DNA of 64,000 bases, taken from contig OZ242214.1 of NCBI GenBank assembly GCA_965206595.1, forward strand, positions 32,001 to 96,000, in the 5' to 3' direction. A program made the translations under genes and the position numbers. Position 1 is the stretch's first letter. The number at the start of each line of letters is the position of its first letter. Below the pieces are notes generated by a model that had not been told where the DNA came from, made no database searches, and saw nothing but the letters and a program-made list of their open reading frames with translations. Positions 4,219 through 64,000 of this stretch are shown here, piece by piece. Source of the stretch: Candidatus Latescibacterota bacterium. GTDB lineage: Bacteria > Latescibacterota > UBA2968 > UBA8231.

Positions 4219-4290
4219 GTGAAGACGAAGTACGGGTTAACCGTGGATCGGGCGGAGATGGAGGCCCTGGCGTCGGTGCTGGCGGAGTTG
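4219..4290 (+). pseudogene. Short remnant resembling the C-terminus of DUF1524/HNH-type endonuclease proteins
   Basis: VKTKYGLTVDRAEMEALASVLA with no intact upstream frame. Confidence 0.3.
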
Positions 4291-4357
4291 GAAACCGTGA
4301 TTCGGATGCAGTCCTTCGGATCACTGAAGCGCAGCCGATTCGAACTGAGGATTAACC

Positions 4358-5849: not shown

Positions 5850-6036
5850 CAGTGTTTCCCACTGTCCCATTATTTTCCGTATTGCCCCATGTAACAAGCT
5901 CCCTTGCAGTAAGTTACCGACAATCAATCGTTTCTTGACGTTTCCTAAAGGTTCCTTTAGGTTCTCCTCCATAGTGATAATTTGGTGATACCATTAGAAA
6001 TATTTCAGTGGTGATATCAAGGAGGAAAATCGAACC

Positions 6037-7209
6037 TTGCAACGTCCAACAATGCTCTCGGCAACCTTCGTGCGATCAGTTAGCCAGCCGGGCCGATACG
6101 GCGACGGCCGTGGAGGGTTTGGGCTCTCGCTGCTGGTGAAGTTGAGGGAAAACGGGAGGCTGTCGAAGACGTGGAGCCAGCGGCTTCGGATCGACGGAAA
6201 AGTAACCAACGTCGGCTTGGGTTCCTGGCCTGTCACGACGCTCAAAGAGGCTCGGGAGAAGGCGTTGGAGAATCGTCGGGAAGTTGAGCATGGGGGTGAT
6301 CCCCGCGAACGCATCGCCCGCGTTCCGACGTTCGCGGAAGCCATCGAAAAGGTGATTGCGATCCATGAACCGTCATGGAAGGACGGAGCCCGATCTGGCG
6401 AAATCTGGCGGTCGTCTCTGCGCGACTACGCGATGCCGCGGCTCGGAGGAAAGCCAGTGGACAAGATCACGACGGCCGACGTGCTGGCCGTGTTGGTGCC
6501 GATCTGGAGCACGAAGCGGGAGACGGCGCGACGTGTTCGCCAGCGGATCGGCGCGATTTTGAAATGGGCGGTCGCGCAGGGATACCGCGACGACAACCCG
6601 GCCGGCGAGGCCATCGGCGAGGCACTGCCGAAAACCGGCTCTCCGAAACAGCACCAACGGGCGTTACCGCACGCCGAAGTAGGGACGGCGGTGCGCAAGG
6701 TGCGGGGGTCGAAGGCGTGGTGGGCGACGAAAGCAGCCTTCGAGTTTCTGACGCTGACGGCGGCGCGCTCGGGTGAAGTCCGGGGGGCGCGGTGGGAGGA
6801 GATCGACTTCGAGACGGCGACCTGGACGGTGCCGGGGGAGCGCATGAAGGCGGGCCGACCGCATCGGGTGCCGCTGCCCCGCCGAGCCCTCGAGGTGCTG
6901 GCCGAGGCGCGTGAGCTGGCTGACGGCTCCGGGCTGGTGTTCCCGAGCAGTGTGCGCGGCAAGATGCTATCGGACATGACCCTCTCCAAGCTCGTCAAGC
7001 AACTCGGCATCGAGGCGGTGCCGCATGGGTTCCGAAGCAGCTTCCGCGATTGGGCCGCGGAGTGCTCGACCGCGCCGAGGGAGGTCCGCGAGCTAGCATT
7101 GGCACACGTCAACAATGATCGGACGGAAACGGCGTATCGGAGGAGCGATTTGTTCGAGCTGCGGCGGAAACTGATGGAAGATTGGGGAGCTTACTTGGGC
7201 CGAAGGTAG
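6037..7209 (+). CDS. P4-like tyrosine integrase with N-terminal arm-binding domain
   Basis: PGRYGDG..GL.L.V arm domain, TAARSGEVRGARW, MKAGRPHRVPL, HGFRSSFRDW, LAH, and catalytic Tyr in AYRR. RBS AAGGAGG. Confidence 0.93.
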   Translation: MQRPTMLSATFVRSVSQPGRYGDGRGGFGLSLLVKLRENGRLSKTWSQRLRIDGKVTNVGLGSWPVTTLKEAREKALENRREVEHGGDPRERIARVPTFAEAIEKVIAIHEPSWKDGARSGEIWRSSLRDYAMPRLGGKPVDKITTADVLAVLVPIWSTKRETARRVRQRIGAILKWAVAQGYRDDNPAGEAIGEALPKTGSPKQHQRALPHAEVGTAVRKVRGSKAWWATKAAFEFLTLTAARSGEVRGARWEEIDFETATWTVPGERMKAGRPHRVPLPRRALEVLAEARELADGSGLVFPSSVRGKMLSDMTLSKLVKQLGIEAVPHGFRSSFRDWAAECSTAPREVRELALAHVNNDRTETAYRRSDLFELRRKLMEDWGAYLGRR

Positions 7210-56463: not shown

Positions 56464-57315
56464 CTACTGCAGATCCTTGCCGGGAATTGTGCCCCAGGAG
56501 ACCGCTTCTGCCTCGCCCTCATAGACCGGCAGATACGGTTCCGTGATGTGTCGCGTTTGTTCGACCCAGTCAGCCCATTCAGACCTGCTGGCGATGTGAT
56601 CGCGGATCAATGCCTTGACTTCGCCGGGCATGTCGTCATAGGCCGGCCAATACCAGATAGTGAGCACTGTGCGGCGTTGGCCGCTCTGATTGGCACGGGC
56701 GGAATGCAGCAGACGCGAATCGCCGATGACGACATCGCCGGCGCGAACTGGTACATCGACCTCACCCTCGACCTGTTGAAAAGCGAGATGATCCCTATCG
56801 GTTGTGTTGATTACGGTGTCGTCGTCCCTTGGTCGCATATCGTGGAGCGGGTGACGTTTCAGGTGGGAGCCGGGGATCAAGCGTAGACAGCCGTTGTGTA
56901 TGTTCGTGTCGACCAGATAGTACATCAGGAAATACTGCTGCGGCTGGTTGGTGTAGCTGATGGGGTGTTCCCACAACACCCCGTCGTGGTGCCAGTATAA
57001 CGGTGGGCTGTGCGGAGGCTTGCTGATCACAAAGCCGCTCCAGAATTTGGGGGAATCAAATCCCAACTCGGCGAAAACCGCCATCGCGCCTGGATCGATG
57101 AGGAGTTCGGTGAAGGTTGGATGCGGGCAAGTCCAGTAGGGAATGAGGCAGCCCTGTGAGCGGTGCTGCTCAAAGTGCTCCTCGTCCTGTTGCGCGATCA
57201 TCCATTCGCTCATGGCGTTCAGCTTCGCTACCATCTCCGGTGCCAGCACATTCTCAAAGATGCAGAAGCCATCGCGCATGAGTTGATTGCGTTTCTCCTT
57301 GGCGACGATTGGCAT
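56464..57315 (-). CDS. Phytanoyl-CoA dioxygenase (PhyH) family protein
   Basis: RDGFCIFENVL, YWHHD, NGCLRLIPGSH, AGDVVIGDSRLLHSARAN...RR. Confidence 0.9.
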   Translation of the reverse strand: MPIVAKEKRNQLMRDGFCIFENVLAPEMVAKLNAMSEWMIAQQDEEHFEQHRSQGCLIPYWTCPHPTFTELLIDPGAMAVFAELGFDSPKFWSGFVISKPPHSPPLYWHHDGVLWEHPISYTNQPQQYFLMYYLVDTNIHNGCLRLIPGSHLKRHPLHDMRPRDDDTVINTTDRDHLAFQQVEGEVDVPVRAGDVVIGDSRLLHSARANQSGQRRTVLTIWYWPAYDDMPGEVKALIRDHIASRSEWADWVEQTRHITEPYLPVYEGEAEAVSWGTIPGKDLQ

Positions 57316-57375
57316 GGGGGGGCTCCTTCCGCGTCAGCAAGTTCTCACGCCCTCCCACCCGCCAAAATCGGGCTA

Positions 57376-58829
57376 TATCCGGGTTTTTCAAAGGACATTT
57401 TATAGCATGTACAGAGAGAGATATTGAGTGATTCACACGGTACGGAATCGGGCCGGAATCTGCGCAGGGATATCGAGGTCTCCGACGCACAGGTAAATGA
57501 GGTCGGCAAAGGCATCCAGAGATTTAAATCCACTGGCTCGATTCTTGACCATGCGGATGATTCGATTGAGCCCTTCGGCGGCGGCGTTGGTCAGGTGCGT
57601 GTCGACGAAGGCCGTGATGCCGGCCGCATGCTTGCGCACCGTGTTGACGAACCTGCGCAGGGGCTCCAGGCGGCTGCGCAGGGCCGCCGTCGTCCACTTC
57701 TTGAGGAAGCGTTCGGCGGCCCAGCGCGCCTTGTAGCGCCAGAAGTGCTCGAACTCGTCCTTCAGGCGCCAGGCGCGGTAGATGCGGCGGTTGGCCTTCT
57801 CCAGGGTTTGGAGCGTGCGCCGGTCCTTTGGCGAGCGCCGGGCGGAGTGATGCAGCAGCACCCAGCGCAGGCCCTTGAGCAGCTTGCGGTCCTCGCCGCA
57901 GGCTTGCCGCCACTGTTCCTTGCGCACCTCGTCGACGGCTTCGTTGAGGGCCTTGACGACGTGGAATCGGTCCAGGACGAGCTGGGCGTTGGGGCCGTGC
58001 TGGCGGATGGCGCCGATGAAGGTCTCGCTCATATCGCAGCAGGCCCAGCGGATACGGGCCTTCCGGAAGGCGCTGAGATGGTCCCGGAAGAACGTATCGA
58101 TCGTTTCGCGGGCCTTGCCCTTGCCGATCCAGACGACACAGGAGCGCTCCAGGTCGTAGACCAGGGTGGCGTATTTATGGCCCTTGGCGTAGGAGATCTC
58201 GTCGATGCCGAGGGTCGTCAGCGCGCGGATGCGATGGCCTGTACGCCGGCGCTCGATGAGCCGGTGCACCTGGTCGGACAGGGTCGAAGGAGCCAGGCCC
58301 AGCAAGCGCGCGGCGGTGACCTGCGGCATCCACTGGCAGTAGGTCAGCAGCAGGTATTCGAAGCGGTAGCTGACCCGGGCCGAGGGCGCTGCCCAGGGCA
58401 CCTCCTCGACGTGCCGGCCGTGGGTCGGACAGCGGATCTCTCGAGGGCGGTGGTACAACCAGACGGTACGGCCGCAAATGCGGACGTCGCGCCAGCGGCG
58501 GGGCTCCATGACCTGTACGATCTTGCCCCGGCGCCCACACTCGGGACACCGGCACCCGTTCCTTTGGGGCTTCACCGCGACCACGACGGCCGCTTCCTCC
58601 CCGTGTCCTTCGAACCACACGCCCACAGCGCCAAACCCCTTGAACTTGAACAGCTTGGAGACGAACTTCATAGCGGTCATAGGTCGCCTTCCCTTCCCTT
58701 TCCTGGGGAGTGCTTGATGGGGATACACCAAGCATAGGGAACGACCTATGGCCTTGTCATGTACTCAGATGAACAGCAAGGGCTCAGGTACTTTCCGTAC
58801 TTACGTTTCGGCGTTGAAAAACCCGGATA
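57376..58829. repeat. MITE-like element with 16-bp inverted ends enclosing an ISL3
   Basis: TATCCGGGTTTTTCAA (57376-57391) and TTGAAAAACCCGGATA (58814-58829); the left 33 bp recur inverted at 21673-21706. Confidence 0.6.
57433..58680 (-). CDS. ISL3-family transposase, apparently intact
   Basis: CPECG, LGIDEISYAKGHKYAT, CCDMS, LDRFHVV, TNAAAEGLN. Confidence 0.92.
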   Translation of the reverse strand: MTAMKFVSKLFKFKGFGAVGVWFEGHGEEAAVVVAVKPQRNGCRCPECGRRGKIVQVMEPRRWRDVRICGRTVWLYHRPREIRCPTHGRHVEEVPWAAPSARVSYRFEYLLLTYCQWMPQVTAARLLGLAPSTLSDQVHRLIERRRTGHRIRALTTLGIDEISYAKGHKYATLVYDLERSCVVWIGKGKARETIDTFFRDHLSAFRKARIRWACCDMSETFIGAIRQHGPNAQLVLDRFHVVKALNEAVDEVRKEQWRQACGEDRKLLKGLRWVLLHHSARRSPKDRRTLQTLEKANRRIYRAWRLKDEFEHFWRYKARWAAERFLKKWTTAALRSRLEPLRRFVNTVRKHAAGITAFVDTHLTNAAAEGLNRIIRMVKNRASGFKSLDAFADLIYLCVGDLDIPAQIPARFRTV

Positions 58830-59460
58830 GACCCTTCTTTTTCAGGTTTTTCCTTACGATGGGGAGCAAGGTCTTGCCCTTCCTGTCGGGGGTCACCTCG
58901 GTGGCTACCCTGCCGGTTTCCCGGCAGCATACTACGACCCCGATACTCACGCCCTTCTGCCAGTTGCCGTCAAACTTCTTGTTGAGGTGCCTGTTTTTAT
59001 CCTTTCCCCCGAAAAAGGTTTCGTCTATTTCAACGGCGCTGCTGTTGAGGCTTTCCTGTTCTCCCCACCCTTCCCGGATGCGATGCAGCATGAACAATGC
59101 CGACGAATACGCAAGGCCGAGGTCGCGGGCAAGCTGCCTGGCGCTGATTCCCTTCGGGCGGGACAGGTGCAGGTGGATGCCGATGGCCCATATCTGCAAG
59201 GGGATCTTGGAGTGAGACATCACCGTTTTCGTGCGAACGCTGAATCGCTTTCGGCAGTCGCCGCACCAATACGGCTGGGGTTTGCGGTTAGGGCATTCCG
59301 TTATCATGCCGTAGCAGCCCCAATGCGGGCAGTGTATGTTGACGGGAAGGCCGTCTACCGTCTTCCCCCATCTGAGTTCTTCAAACCATTTTTCCGCTGT
59401 TTCATCATCTGGAAACATTCTGAATAATTCGATTAAGGATAAACTTTTACCATTCTTCAC
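58801..59460 (-). pseudogene. IS1595-family transposase, 3'-truncated
   Basis: FPDDETAEKWFEELRW, zinc ribbon, SKIPLQIW, KGISARQL, VEIDETFFGG; ends at the inverted repeat. Confidence 0.85.
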
Positions 59461-59969
59461 TCCGATTACCTTCGGGCCGTGGAATACCGAACTTGAGACC
59501 AGCGGCCCTCATAAAATATTGTGATTCACGCTCCCATAGGATTCCTTTCGGTTAGTGGGATGGTGACTCTGTCGGTGTTCGCCGACAGAAGGGACTGAGG
59601 AAGCGGCAGCGGATGCTGAGGGCTTCCTCTTCGAATTACCATTATTGTACCTGGATTTTCTAAAAAAAAAATCGGCTTGCAGGAAATTTCCATAAAGCTC
59701 GTAACGGCGAGGGCGAACTTTAGTTTCTGGAAGCGGGAGAGGGGGTGTGGCAGGGGAGGCAAGGAGGTCGGCGGTGGATGCAGGAAGGCCTGATTCAAGG
59801 GGGGATGAGCATCCAGACGGTTCCTTCAGGAGCTGGAGCCGGGGTGTGGCTTTTGCGGGGTAGGTCCTGGGGGGAGGGGATTGCGGGGCTGCAAGCCCGG
59901 TGTCGCTGGAGGTCTCAGTCCGGATCGGCGTTACCTAAAAAGGATTCAGGAACTGCGGGTCGAGGTGGC

Positions 59970-60134
59970 GCTGAGGGATACGACCTGGTGCTTCGCCGAC
60001 GAGGGAATCTTCATCCCTTTGGAGAAACGTCTGCTATCAGCGCCGCTACATGAACGGCATGACCCAGCTGCGCGGCCTGAACAACTACCCCGAGCAGGAG
60101 GCGAGTATCAGGGAATTACCATCAACTGTGTACA
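59970..60134 (+). repeat. Degenerate direct repeat copy 1, ending in ATTACCATCAACTGTGTACA
   Basis: Aligns with 61416-61596; shared core GAACGGCATGA...GCTGCGCG..CTGAACAACTACCCCGAGCAGG...TCAGGGAATTACCATCA. Confidence 0.8.
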
Positions 60135-60153
60135 TCCATAGGACTATCGAAAC

Positions 60154-60930
60154 CTACCTGAACCTACCAGCGGCTTCCCGTAATTCAAAGATGTTATTCA
60201 TCTGTTCCGCGTTTGGTCTACGTCCGATCTTACCTAAGAAATCGCTCGCAACATCGGAATCGGTGATAGGCGTATCGCCACTGGGGTCGATTGCTGAGTC
60301 GATATACTGCACTGCCTTTGCGAGCTGCTTGGTATGGGCTATAAATGCTCCGGCCCTCGGTTCAATAACAACCTTGTTCCCTATCTGTGAGTCGAGCAAC
60401 CTTATGCTGATGTAGTTCAAAACTGAATGAATTTCGTCCAAGGCGTTCCCCACTTTTTCAATGCTTGCAGAAGCCAAGGGTTCAGGATTGGGTCCTATTA
60501 CTCGGGAAAGGTCAGTATGAGCGATGACTCTGTTTCTCCAGTCACGCGCAAATTCTCCAGATTCAATCGCAGTATTGACGCGACTACTCACTTCGCAATG
60601 CAATTCTGCATCTTCGCAAAGCTCCGGCAGCTTCAAGATGGTAAGATTGTCCTTTCCCTTGCCGCTACTAACAGGGTCGGTCAACTTGCTCACGAGCAGT
60701 ATTAGATTCTCCCAGAATACCCACTGAACATGCAAAAGAAATCCACCCATAATTGCTCTTAGAGGTTTGGCATCCTCAGCCCTGGTGAGTATCCGAAGCT
60801 CTCTGATTGTTATTGTTCCCCAACACCAGTTATTTACCAAGGCATGAAATATTGTCCCGAATTCTACCCCGAGCTTATCCTGGTACTCTTGCTTTACTTC
60901 AGACGAACTTCTTTGTCGCCTCTCTGTCAT
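60154..60930 (-). CDS. AbiU2-like HEPN domain protein
   Basis: ILLVSKLTDP...NLTI...RDWRNRVIAH (Rx4-6H HEPN motif); lower GC than the flanks. Confidence 0.75.
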   Translation of the reverse strand: MTERRQRSSSEVKQEYQDKLGVEFGTIFHALVNNWCWGTITIRELRILTRAEDAKPLRAIMGGFLLHVQWVFWENLILLVSKLTDPVSSGKGKDNLTILKLPELCEDAELHCEVSSRVNTAIESGEFARDWRNRVIAHTDLSRVIGPNPEPLASASIEKVGNALDEIHSVLNYISIRLLDSQIGNKVVIEPRAGAFIAHTKQLAKAVQYIDSAIDPSGDTPITDSDVASDFLGKIGRRPNAEQMNNIFELREAAGRFR

Positions 60931-61173
60931 TTTCCATCTTCCTTTTGCCATCTTCTGTTCTCATTGGGGAAGCATTCAAATCGTATCACTTCTGGTTTCC
61001 CCTGTTCCAGTTGCACTTCCTGTTTCATTTTCATGGCTTGTAGGGGGCGTATTTCTTCGCCGCGGTATTGCAGCCGACGAACAGAACCCCTGCGATGAGA
61101 AGATTCACTGCCTCTCTGTCATTCCTTCACCGGAACATCGACATCGACTTCGATCTTGGCGCGCGCCTTGACC

Positions 61174-61368
61174 TCATAGGGTGGACGCTCCAACGACTTC
61201 TTTCTCAAGGGTCACCGTCGTGGCCGTAGAATCCCCAATCGTAGTCACCGGCGATCCGGGCTCCTCGTCCCAAGGATCTTTGTCGTCGGGCGGATTGATC
61301 AGGTCCCAACCCGACAGAAGGATGGCCGTGGCGAAGATGGTGGCCTGGAGCAGCGTGAAGACAGTCAT
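61174..61368 (-). CDS. Small secreted/membrane peptide, possibly frameshifted remnant
   Basis: RBS GAGG, hydrophobic N-terminus, acidic tail. Confidence 0.4.
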   Translation of the reverse strand: MTVFTLLQATIFATAILLSGWDLINPPDDKDPWDEEPGSPVTTIGDSTATTVTLEKEVVGASTL

Positions 61369-61415
61369 AATACTCTTTCCTCAAGGGTTTCAAGCGAAAC
61401 TTCCAGCACAATCGC

Positions 61416-61596
61416 CACTGGAAGGATTCGATCTGGCGGTGCTGTTCTCAACGGCAAGGCGAGGATATCGGCATCCCCTTGAGCGGAACGGACCTCAATC
61501 AGAGGTCGCCAACAGGAACGGCATGAATCACGCTGCGCGAACTGAACAACTACCCCGAGCAGGGGGTGAGTGTCAGGGAATTACCATCACTGTACA
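61416..61596 (+). repeat. Degenerate direct repeat copy 2, ending in ATTACCATCACTGTACA
   Basis: See copy 1; similarity stops sharply after TGTACA. Confidence 0.8.
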
Positions 61597-61605
61597 CTCT
61601 TGCAT

Positions 61606-62373
61606 TCAGTCCTCCTTCATTTTTCTCAGGTCAACAATTTGATCTACAGTCAATTCCTTTTCTATGGAATTGCAGATCTCAACCATGCGAGATTGAAATG
61701 GCGAAAGAGGGCCTTTCTTATCCTCTCTCCACCTCAAGTGAAGAAGATATCCCAAGCAATCTGGCAATACACCACCAGGTAAATTCTTGGCATAGAAAGA
61801 TACGTCCCCAATTTTGCTATGATCAATTGACATATCCCCAGGAGATAAAAATTCGCTCATCCATTGATTGCTCACCGTGTTTCTCTGGAAAATAAAATAT
61901 TGTAGGGGGGAATCGTCTCTTTCCATGAAGTAATGGAATAGATGATCAGATCTGGCAGAAGCCTTTAGTCCCATAAAGCACATGGGAATCAACCATTCTT
62001 TTTCAAAGTTGATGTAGCTCTGTTTGCGACAATTATGGAATAACTCCTCCGCCCTTTCGTTTCTCCGATATCCAATTCGGACAATAGGTATCTTCATTTC
62101 ATTAATTATTGACGCCAGCCCTTCCATGAATTTAAACTTCGTTTTATCAGGCTCGTCAGGGAATAACTCGCATGCGTGTACTTCGGGAAGGCTGGGAATA
62201 TGGTTACGAGGCGATGGGAATAAATCTCTGAGAAGAGAAAAGTATTTTTTCCTGAAAGGCACAATCTGAGTTGCCATGAGATATACGCCAGTCAGTGCAG
62301 TTACTTGGTTTTTCCTGGATTCGGTATGATCCGCATACTTTTCGTCAAGATAAACATGAACAGATTCAACCAT
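61606..62373 (-). CDS. DUF3800-like (RNase H-fold) protein
   Basis: VHVYLDE at the N-terminus, EVHACELF, LPDCLGY near the C-terminus; low GC. Confidence 0.55.
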   Translation of the reverse strand: MVESVHVYLDEKYADHTESRKNQVTALTGVYLMATQIVPFRKKYFSLLRDLFPSPRNHIPSLPEVHACELFPDEPDKTKFKFMEGLASIINEMKIPIVRIGYRRNERAEELFHNCRKQSYINFEKEWLIPMCFMGLKASARSDHLFHYFMERDDSPLQYFIFQRNTVSNQWMSEFLSPGDMSIDHSKIGDVSFYAKNLPGGVLPDCLGYLLHLRWREDKKGPLSPFQSRMVEICNSIEKELTVDQIVDLRKMKED

Positions 62374-62407
62374 CTAGAGTAACCTCCAGGAGAAAAAATG
62401 GAACCTT

Positions 62408-62430
62408 ACAGAGATTATCATCACTGTACA
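62408..62430 (+). repeat. Third copy of the terminal site, ACAGAGATTATCATCACTGTACA
   Basis: Matches the last about 20 nt of the two longer repeats. Confidence 0.7.
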
Positions 62431-62450
62431 GATCATCCTTCTCCGGTTAT

Positions 62451-63344
62451 CTATCTGTAGTTCGGAATCTCCAACCTTCCCTCTTGCACCTTCACGAGAT
62501 ACTGGAAGAAGTTTTCTCGATCATACCCCCTCATAAACTTGCAAATCTTGCGTAGCTCACCAGGAATCTGGTCACGAGAAATTCCAGGATGAGGTGAGTT
62601 ACCAGGATGTAGAAATCGTATGGCATACTCGACATTCTCGGTTATCAGGCGACTGATTCCAGAGTATATGCTCTGAAAACGATCTTTTCTTCCCCCTTGG
62701 CCTTCCATAAGAGTGTTGGCCATTTCAAACATCTCTTCGTGCAGGGCACGACAGAGCCTTCTGGTGACATTCGGATACTCTACCTCATCCTTCAACCTAA
62801 TGAACTCATCTTCCAGGATGTATCTGATTCCTCTCGCTACTTCCAGCATCGCGCCAATGCTCACCTTCGGTTGTCTTGCACTGTCCTCGGGAAAGCCCTC
62901 AAGGAGGAAATACCTCCAAGTAGTATATCCACCCTGTCTTCCTCCATCTCCCCGAGCACCCACGTCAAGTTGATCGAGAAAAGGTTTCAACGTACGAAGA
63001 GGAATGTAGCTGTGCAGTTCAACGTACCCCTCGTACGTTCGATCCAGAGTTTCCTTGTGTTTTTCGCTCAGCTTTTCATACAGCCTGCTCAACCGATGTC
63101 CCCAACCGGATTTACCTGTATGGAACTGGATGAGTAGCTTCAGTCCCTGCTCTATGGCGGAATATGCCGACGGGACCCACACCCACCCCTGAATCCCTTC
63201 ATAGTCAGGTGCCATGTCAGGGGCTACCCCACCAGACTTATTGTACATTTTTGAGAGCGCGCTGATGGCCTCGGCAGTTCTCATGTACGCAGGTCTCAAA
63301 TGGTTGTCACTCGGCATTGCCGTTGCCTTCTCCCCTTCAGTCAT
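62451..63344 (-). CDS. HEPN-like domain protein
   Basis: YSAIEQGLKLLI...GHRLSRLYEKL...WRY pattern of HEPN helical domains; lower GC. Confidence 0.55.
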   Translation of the reverse strand: MTEGEKATAMPSDNHLRPAYMRTAEAISALSKMYNKSGGVAPDMAPDYEGIQGWVWVPSAYSAIEQGLKLLIQFHTGKSGWGHRLSRLYEKLSEKHKETLDRTYEGYVELHSYIPLRTLKPFLDQLDVGARGDGGRQGGYTTWRYFLLEGFPEDSARQPKVSIGAMLEVARGIRYILEDEFIRLKDEVEYPNVTRRLCRALHEEMFEMANTLMEGQGGRKDRFQSIYSGISRLITENVEYAIRFLHPGNSPHPGISRDQIPGELRKICKFMRGYDRENFFQYLVKVQEGRLEIPNYR

Positions 63345-63718
63345 TGGACAGTTCTCCCAATGTCCAGTACACAGTTTCCCCATCTTTCGGAAGCCGTAGA
63401 GCCTGTCGCGTACTGCTTGCCTGAGCAAGTAGAATCTGGAAGCAGTCCATGAGATCGTCAGGAACTCCTCGACAAAAAGCTGCGCGAGGCCGAGAACTAG
63501 AGAACGCCGAGCTGGACCGGGAAAGCGACCGGCTCAAGTGCCTGTATAATGCGACGGTAGAATACCGATCAAAAGCGCGATTTTTCCGATTATCTGGTCC
63601 CTTGTTATTCATGGAATTTTAGTGGAGAGGGCTGTACTGGGTGCCTCCCATGCTTAGATTTCAGAGGGAAACACAAGGCAGTATCGCCCTTTGAACCCAT
63701 CACACAGTAGGACACCCA

Positions 63719-64000
63719 ATGGGTGAATTACCGTCACACACCGAGTCCGAGCAAGCCGGGCCGATTCAGCCGTCTTTCAACCGCTCCATCCACATCGAAG
63801 CCCGCCCCACCCACCTTGGCAGCGACACCGGTGCGCTGATGTTGCGTCAACTGCTCGAACACAGCCGGGTTCTGGATTGGGTCGACGCCCACTTCGAGGA
63901 TCTCCGTACCCAAGACCAGATCACGCACCCGCTGCCGGAGCTGCTGCGCACACAGATCGTGCTGCTGGCACAGGGCTGGACCCACGCCGCCGACGCCGAC
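63719..64000 (+). pseudogene. IS1380-family transposase 5' part, frameshifted, runs off the window
   Basis: QPSFNRSIHIEARP, then in another frame SDTGALMLRQLLE...QITHPLPELLRTQIVLLAQGW. Confidence 0.75.

Follow-up and report, generated by a model that had tools for sequence, protein, structure and literature searches.

Integron arrays consist of short co-oriented genes with a recurring site at each 3' end, and in the translocatable-unit arrays of IS26 and the one-ended mobilisation by ISEcp1, direct copies of an insertion sequence (IS), or of its right end, alternate with single cargo segments. The ends of Tn7-like elements and CRISPR-associated transposons (CAST) hold several binding repeats and enclose tnsB/tnsC/tniQ-type genes, and ISAs19 of Aeromonas is a ~1.2-kb element with a single DDE transposase of helix-turn-helix (HTH) plus rve architecture, TGT...ACA termini and a 7-bp target duplication. 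A dif/Xer site of the kind used by IMEX elements is a 28-bp sequence with XerC and XerD arms that resembles the dif of its host chromosome. One report likewise credits ISAs19 with 7-bp duplications and describes transposons as often targeting one another, forming conglomerates (PMC5756416). The array considered here lies in a 64-kb stretch (the window) of the 7.05-Mb, single-contig genome of a Candidatus Latescibacterota bacterium, in which three genes are each followed by a copy of one short site, an arrangement that an earlier interpretation made from the letters alone (the sequence-only reading) had taken for the stacking of single anti-phage cassettes, possibly by an undescribed integron-like system. 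The site, TGTACAGTGATGGTAAT..., corresponds to the outermost 27 bp at the right terminus of a 1.22-kb IS481-family IS, and the element is a previously uncharacterised member of a known family (IS481, ISAs19 group); a cassette system is not supported.

The motif TGTACAGTGATG(G/A)TAAT is present three times on the minus strand of the window, 19, 9 and 20 nt past the stops of gene 1 (60154–60951), gene 2 (61606–62373) and gene 3 (62451–63344), where the sense strand reads TGTACACAGTTGATGGTAATTCCCTGA, TGTACAGTGATGGTAATTCCCTGA and TGTACAGTGATGATAATCTCTGT, respectively. Both the spacings and the description of the genes as co-oriented and of lower GC content agree with the coordinates and with a GC content of 0.41–0.51 over the three genes against 0.637 genome-wide. 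As 27-nt units, all on the minus strand, the copies occupy 60108–60134 (w1, tip at 60134), 61570–61596 (w2, tip at 61596) and 62404–62430 (w3, tip at 62430), the last being a solo repeat of ~27 nt that runs straight into the ribosome-binding region of gene 2. A 17-mer search at up to three mismatches returned three matches in the window against 0.02 expected from shuffled sequence; w1, which reads TGTACA-CA-GTTGATGGTAATTCCCTGA, escaped the ungapped 17-mer scan because of its 2-nt insertion and was recovered by a repeat finder (repeats D1 and D3). The similarity had been said to end sharply at TGTACA, and on the outer side it does, because TGTACA is the tip of the element, but on the inner side the likeness of w1 and w2 extends over 83 nt at 88% identity and then continues into further shared IS scraps. 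Read along the opposite strand, this 83-nt stretch contains the closing part of a reading frame (...NGMT.L...), after which comes a stop.

Relatives of the protein encoded by the one full-length copy in the genome occur at 33 loci in Latescibacterota, Gemmatimonadota, Alphaproteobacteria, Aeromonas and others, and six of these loci hold intact elements of 1223 bp (L037 and L038), 1215 bp (L039) or 1241 bp (L040–L042). The left inverted repeat (IRL) of the intact copies is TGTTCCGTGATGGTATTCACCTGACAG (beginning TGTTCCGTGATGGTATTC…) and the right inverted repeat (IRR) is TGTACAGTGATGGTAATTACCTGACAC, ending ...AATTACCATCACTGTACA; together they form an imperfect 27-bp inverted repeat with 5'-TGT...ACA-3' tips, the right arm of which is the site in the window, with w1 matching the IRR of L037 and L038. 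Each intact element encodes a single 350-aa transposase, and those of L037 and L038 score 260.2 and 260.4 bits against the NCBIfam IS481 model NF033577 (cutoff, 224). Just outside the tips there are perfect 7-bp target duplications in four of the six (L038, L040, L041, and L042; AAAAGAG, CTCTGAT, GCCTGTG, and GTTTAGA), a duplication matching at 6 of 7 bp in L037 and none in L039. Model score, terminal inverted repeats, length and target duplication all identify the intact elements as members of the IS481 family. The IRR of such an element is the sequence that its DDE transposase binds and cuts, and the expected association of the site with a recombinase is thus found in an IS481-family DDE transposase, just as the suspected resemblance to a TGT-type transposon end is explained by the TGT...ACA tips of the intact elements.

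The nearest annotated plasmid relative is an “IS481-like element ISAs19 family transposase” with 70% nucleotide identity. Transposases of the window type are 66–73% identical to those of the Aeromonas copies (best tblastn segment at each of 15 loci; 70% at the DNA level), and the ISAs19-like copies share the inverted repeat (IR) core GATGGTA-T--ACCTGACAG with the element described here. They differ in the IRR, which ends ...GGTGATAACTAGATCTGTACA in Aeromonas and ...AATTACCATCACTGTACA here, and in their hosts, as ISAs19 resides in Aeromonas, whereas the present element is hosted by Latescibacterota, Gemmatimonadota and some Pseudomonadota metagenome-assembled genomes (MAGs), and in the window is present as relics only.

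The window copies retain only the right end of the IS, with ~113 (w1), ~87 (w2) and ~27 nt (w3) of IS481 sequence, and neither an IRL nor an IS481 transposase was found in the 64-kb window, such that none of the three is a complete or autonomous element. The inner part of w1 (60022–60107, minus strand) derives from the final ~113 nt of the IS, in which the transposase stop region lies, and has an internal deletion of ~60 nt (blastn against the copy at 6064029–6065249). Joined to it is a scrap from another multicopy IS (59875–60021, minus strand) that forms part of a ~1.85-kb chimera. The inner part of w2 (61397–61569, minus strand) combines ~87 nt of the IS481 3' end with ~110 nt of the w1-type scrap chimera and carries frame-breaking indels. 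The window copies are dead relics, which we infer now do nothing as recombination sites.

The wider scan proposed by the sequence-only reading did find that the motif follows varied low-GC genes at other places in this genome and in its relatives. Genome-wide, the 17-mer occurs in seven places at up to two mismatches, and blast searches with the ~150-nt relics identified ~10 distinct places. The sole full-length copy (6064029–6065249; 83% identity) has an open reading frame (ORF) with HTH and rve (integrase-core) domains, though its transposase frame is broken: the ORF of 325 aa ends ~60 residues early, with the remainder in another frame, and scores 214 bits against the IS481 model, below the cutoff of 224, covering only model positions 2–243 of 284. 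The other matches to the element in the genome are fragments. In related genomes, the IR core was detected in 15 of 41, against none for a reversed control pattern, and the similarity always breaks at the tip. The full-length copy itself (locus L001, 6059249–6068249) sits in a defence island, between an HmaC-like gene (Swt1 HEPN and DUF499; PADLOC HmaC, 1133 bits) and a DUF2806 gene; next to these is a GmrSD/HEC-05-like gene.

An integron-like system of an undescribed kind, in which a site-specific recombinase inserts single cassettes that each bring their own copy of the site, would be consistent with a sharply bounded site 9–20 nt past the stop of each of three unrelated genes and with the presence of the site behind other varied genes elsewhere in the genome. 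The site is, however, fully accounted for as the terminal repeat of an IS with intact elements and target duplications, and w1 and w2 hold transposase 3' coding remnants besides the site. Unlike integron arrays, the locus has no intI, attI or Pc, and its recurring site is a predicted transposase-binding IR without an attC fold. The three sites fold no better than shuffled DNA (z = +1.10, −1.45, and −1.14), as the sequence-only reading had anticipated in stating that the site is not an attC hairpin. No integrase was found beside the array or its older copy, where Pfam searches of the surrounding ORFs returned only transposases. The only tyrosine integrase in the window (6037–7209) is of phage type and lies 54 kb from the array, and the proposed likeness of the GTGAT motif to repeats beside this integrase was not confirmed: GTGATGGTAAT at up to one mismatch has no match among the GTGATA repeats there, which differ from the IR. 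Those repeats, three in number (5950–6036) and ahead of the integrase gene, are possibly arm-type or operator sites and are unrelated to the IS end.

Nor does the site travel with the genes, because none of four homologue loci of genes 1 and 2 carries it. A homologue of gene 1 (69% identical) in a genome of the same family (G019) is followed by a different IS, with no IRR-like sequence in the 3.6-kb locus, and at three loci in Dehalococcoidia MAGs homologues of gene 2 all lack the site within 2.5 kb. Contigs of four runs from two independent studies, aligned to positions 57000–64000, span the whole array in the same order, so that the reordered cassettes once envisaged were not seen in these contigs, which cannot reveal rare forms. 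Some contigs contained joints between ~59928–60098 and 61542–61570, with short sides of 28–36 nt. In X4 and X5 the strongest joint (60065 to 61566) had a depth of 35–46 against 5.6 for the array and a weaker one (60098 to 61570) a depth of 3.9–6.4, and in X1 the joints had a depth of 13–30 against 49 for the array. An origin of the joints by excision was rejected, and they are attributed to IS copies elsewhere, in which one side resembles w1 and the opposite side w2. The results for homologues, folding, integrases and contigs, together with the identification of the IS, therefore leave little room for a dedicated cassette recombinase; we regard an integron-like stacker of defence genes, which the evidence does not bear out, as highly improbable.

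A further proposal, that the site is a Tn7-like or CAST end or a dif-like Xer site, drew only on a shared TGTACAGTGA start, pointed out in the sequence-only reading, and on the 6-bp palindrome TGTACA. In contrast to Tn7-like and CAST ends, the present element has one IR per end and not several binding repeats, a single ORF encoding an IS481 transposase within 1.22 kb, and a 7-bp duplication, and this assignment has next to no probability.

The array most probably represents ordinary IS insertions behind accessory genes that later decayed to relic right ends. Under this explanation, the array would have grown by ordinary IS traffic in an island packed with IS scraps (ISL3, IS1595-like and a ~1860-bp IS4-type element). 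Copies of the IS481-family element would have inserted a short way past gene stops, right end toward the gene, and subsequent insertions and deletions, some of them nested at the inner IR edge, would then have removed or replaced the bodies of these copies. What is left of the IS, its outer end, may have been spared because its removal would harm the neighbouring gene. A precedent for nested insertion could be provided by G019, in which two IRR copies stand in tandem 32 nt apart (L021, G019:C1 ~1400500; TGTGCAGTGATGGTAATGACC... then TTTACAGTGACGGTAATGACC...), apparently through insertion of one IS copy along the inner border of another's terminal repeat. The locus resembles IS conglomerates in having truncated IS ends into which other IS have inserted (ISL3 in the IS1595-like gene, and scraps fused to the IS481 end). 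It differs from them in having three right ends of the same orientation, each 9–20 nt behind a different intact gene, and in the strong directionality of the right end toward gene 3' ends (33 sites).

Several observations weigh against so simple a history. The genome holds nine tip-bearing IRR sites and two or three left-end relics, a disparity not predicted by random decay, and the orientation is the same in all three array relics, in a pair elsewhere in the genome (291336/294308) and in the tandem pair of G019. The ~1.85-kb chimera, composed of an IRR tip, IS scraps and an IS1595-like gene, is conserved at 72–80% identity in four places in three genomes with a different gene at the tip each time, which hints that the tip or its adjoining DNA has been repeatedly exchanged. 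Right ends also have a marked polarity: among 33 IRR tips (nine from this genome, 15 from relatives and nine from other phyla, where the adjoining copy is intact or almost so), scored by the largest ORF of at least 100 aa with its nearer end no more than 400 nt outside the tip, 26 had the 3' end of the ORF toward the tip, one had the opposite arrangement and six had no ORF, a count that includes intact copies with duplications but in which the tips are not independent (three form the array, and kin genomes share history) and ORF calling is crude in high-GC DNA. Similarly, the right end of 10 ISAs19-like Aeromonas copies faced a gene 3' end in five cases and the other way in one, with no ORF in three and too short a flank in one. 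Simple survivorship may be insufficient to produce this polarity.

At eight of the 33 sites, the stop lies 2–20 nt from the tip. The left end of the same 10 Aeromonas copies, three of which have perfect 7-bp duplications, had six ORFs facing away, one toward and three without an ORF, and among seven full copies of the TGTACAGTGATGG type the left end had five toward and two away. Base composition follows the same axis. The flank on the IRR side has a lower GC content than that on the IRL side in all six intact TGTACAGTGATGG-type copies (with a small margin in L041, 0.61 vs 0.66), in the full-length G000 copy and in eight of nine scorable Aeromonas copies. Measured over 600 nt outside the right and left ends (L037–L042 and Aeromonas L047–L062), values were, for example, 0.31 vs 0.53, 0.48 vs 0.69 and 0.37 vs 0.66, and the lower right-flank GC is seen even with perfect 7-bp duplications, the signature of simple recent insertion.

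No homologous pair was detected among 24 tip-adjacent proteins that were compared. Within this genome, several neighbours of tips look defence-related (AbiU2, SIR2, a TIR-like match, a RiboL-PSP HEPN below cutoff and DUF2806 beside the Hma system), and as none of 18 tip-adjacent proteins from other genomes had a defence-specific match, the association is with low-GC accessory genes and not with defence as such. An alignment of 30 tip flanks yielded no target consensus beyond a weak C-A at positions −5/−4. Possible causes of the polarity include survivorship, in that insertion behind genes is harmless, an orientation-specific choice of target (e.g., terminator-like or AT-rich junctions), and capture of the gene outside the right end. 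Literature searches on IS481 with terminators, orientation bias or target specificity found nothing on such polarity, and those on solo IS481 ends found only unrelated work on eukaryotic transposons.

Capture would correspond to gene stacking driven by the IS itself, in which the IS481-family element, or a right end served by a transposase in trans, sets in motion whichever gene adjoins that end on the outside. Two routes could lead there, read-through to a surrogate end, as for ISEcp1, or insertion of a gene-plus-IS unit beside a resident IS end, as for IS26 translocatable units and the end-targeting of IS911, and either would produce direct gene-IRR-gene-IRR arrays in which the IS bodies decay later. 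End-targeted insertion is a property of IS3-family transposases such as that of IS911. Stacking would fit the array relics, which are all direct repeats with one gene outside each tip, as well as the 26 of 33 tips that face gene 3' ends, the lack of homologous pairs among the neighbouring proteins, the lower GC of the IRR-side flank, and the tandem IRR pair, as an insertion at an IR edge. The alternation of directly oriented IS ends with single cargo segments is likewise shared with IS26 and ISEcp1, but those belong to the IS6 and IS1380 families and not to IS481, the array here is without a complete IS copy, and the duplications of intact copies surround the IS alone. Because they do, those copies moved without the neighbouring gene, which argues against gene capture in their case. 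Further, there is neither a full IS copy nor a left end in the array, homologues of genes 1 and 2 elsewhere have no IS end beside them (though these are too distant to be donors), and the array is fixed and identical in the contigs of both studies. Stacking by the IS is therefore considered unlikely.

It is also conceivable, if rather doubtful, that the relics were co-opted, with a hairpin just inside the IR (ACCCCCTGCTCGGGGT) and the T-rich stretch after it serving the adjoining gene, whose 3' end lies at the tip, as a terminator or insulator, a role compatible with decay of ordinary insertions. The hairpin is predicted in w2 and kept in most relics, and right-end relics are kept more often than left-end relics; against this, w3 consists of the 27-nt IR only and has no hairpin, and a terminator scan did not call the hairpin, with two terminator-like sites compared to 4.4 in shuffled sequence. 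Across positions 59400–63700, promoter and terminator sites were no more numerous than in shuffled sequence. If the array arose by ordinary IS insertion and decay, the small hairpin might, speculatively, at most help to terminate transcription of the upstream gene.

The array is embedded in a duplicated segment of a genome that is heavily loaded with IS. A 6.2-kb block (57371–63598), extending from an ISL3-family IS through gene 3, is repeated at 423989–430216 with 99.98% identity, and the copy in the window is bounded by the ISL3 element on one side and the ~1860-bp IS on the other. The copy at 423989–430216 is the older one, because there the IS1595-like gene continues past the ISL3 element and a further unit, module X, is uncut. 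The ISL3-family IS (57364–58841, minus strand; inverted repeat I1; Pfam DDE_Tnp_ISL3), which cuts the IS1595-like gene, has 13 blast matches of at least 1,300 nt to other places in the genome. The ~1860-bp IS starting at 63599 (IS4-type; DDE_Tnp_1_4 transposase, ORF from 63719) has 28 matches elsewhere of at least 1,800 nt at 99% identity or more, and its copies, among which one opens the contig, point to a recent burst.

Module X comprises a divergent ~80-aa XRE-type HTH gene, a TTGACA-17-TAGAAT promoter and a conserved leader of ~330 nt, and lies upstream of gene 3 in the older copy of the block. Only its end (63555–63598, minus strand) remains ahead of gene 3 in the window, where it is cut by the ~1860-bp IS. 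The leader looks non-coding, with indels that are not in threes, ends ...CTCTAYTATGTTATACCAGATTTT and has no match in Rfam, searches of which returned no families in 57000–64000, L002 or L003 at E-values up to 1. Full copies are present at 430252–430803, 433852–434488, 2757587–2758215 and 295366–296005 and at locus L107 of genome G001. Within the genus there are 6–11 blast matches per genome, and the four of 76 family genomes with matches are those of the genus plus one weak match. A frame of module X, variable cargo, IRR tip, IS scraps and IS1595-like gene recurs at 2.755 Mb, where the cargo is a SIR2-like gene, and also in a sister genome, there with different cargo, and the cargo after module X is not always defence-like (e.g., a 778-aa WD40 protein with a secretion tail). 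Module X may represent a regulatory RNA, or it may mark the border of a mobile element that has so far gone unrecognised. A 63-nt fragment of its leader was also noted at 4266–4328, 1.7 kb from the region of the 6037–7209 integrase, and is unrelated to the IS end.

The IS1595-like transposase gene of the window (58801–59680, minus strand; identified by Pfam, and by NCBIfam IS1595 for an intact paralogue) is truncated to 219 aa. IS1595-like genes have in common a conserved leader of ~200 nt, located at 59461–59680 (minus strand) in the window and at 2755297–2755587, 2750527–2750734 and 6740574–6740736 for paralogues. The leader contains a perfect hairpin (CTGTCGGYG-loop-CRCCGACAG) and a near-invariant stretch of ~75 nt just before the start codon, has an RNA fold z-score of −2.6, and is without a match in Rfam. 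A weak fourth copy of the motif (59635–59651; three mismatches) at a −10-like box within this leader was rejected as an IS end and is read as a chance resemblance, because the paralogous leaders fit the motif less well. Inverted repeats of the IS1595-like unit were looked for and none were found, which leaves a role of the TGTACA tip as a surrogate end for its transposase without support. At locus L091 (2741800–2755300), four IS1595-like copies of the same orientation are spaced ~3–4 kb apart, and two of the intervals hold near-duplicate gene pairs for PD40/WD40-type secreted proteins, in what looks like a tandem segmental duplication.

The designation of the three array genes as putative defence genes holds to differing degrees. 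It is fair for gene 1 (265 aa), the only one of the three with a significant defence-type domain (HEPN_AbiU2, Pfam PF18734; E-value 6e-14, 52 bits vs cutoff 26.8). Gene 2 (255 aa) is a plausible candidate, as it is DUF3800-like (ESM Atlas, 0.95; DUF3800 in 30 of 30 named matches), though it has no match in Pfam, NCBIfam or PADLOC. The case is weak for gene 3 (297 aa from the ATG at 63344, or 325 aa from a TTG at 63428), which is weakly HEPN-like, with a Pfam HEPN E-value of 0.041 that is under the cutoff and an Atlas match (0.87) that serves as a lead only. PADLOC matched none of the three. The family of gene 2 is small, with 25 relatives found; no close relatives were detected in genome contigs with a single-protein query or in metagenome contigs with an alignment query, and the alignment query returned three loci in genome contigs. 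A putative 64-aa ORF with a hydrophobic N-terminus and no Pfam match lies upstream of gene 1 (61174–61368, minus strand).

A stacker of defence genes akin to an integron would have been important, and the evidence does not support it. There is a low probability that the right end is the working part of a directional process, whether orientation-specific insertion behind the stops of AT-rich acquired genes or capture and re-insertion at resident ends. If so, the array would be a transposase-based analogue of a cassette array, in which single accessory or defence genes are each followed by a copy of the right end, and the platform would be the frame of module X, variable cargo, IRR tip and IS1595-like gene seen in three islands of this genome and in a sister genome. 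Taken as an IS, the element is an ISAs19-group member of IS481 that occurs in Latescibacterota as well as in several further phyla, and its 27-bp end can serve to flag relics that gene callers miss. It also has a reproducible polarity, in that mostly low-GC genes, unrelated to one another, end toward its right end, including at freshly transposed copies. If that polarity reflects target choice and not survivorship, it would constitute a new targeting rule for a common IS family and one route by which accessory islands gain IS ends of the same orientation.

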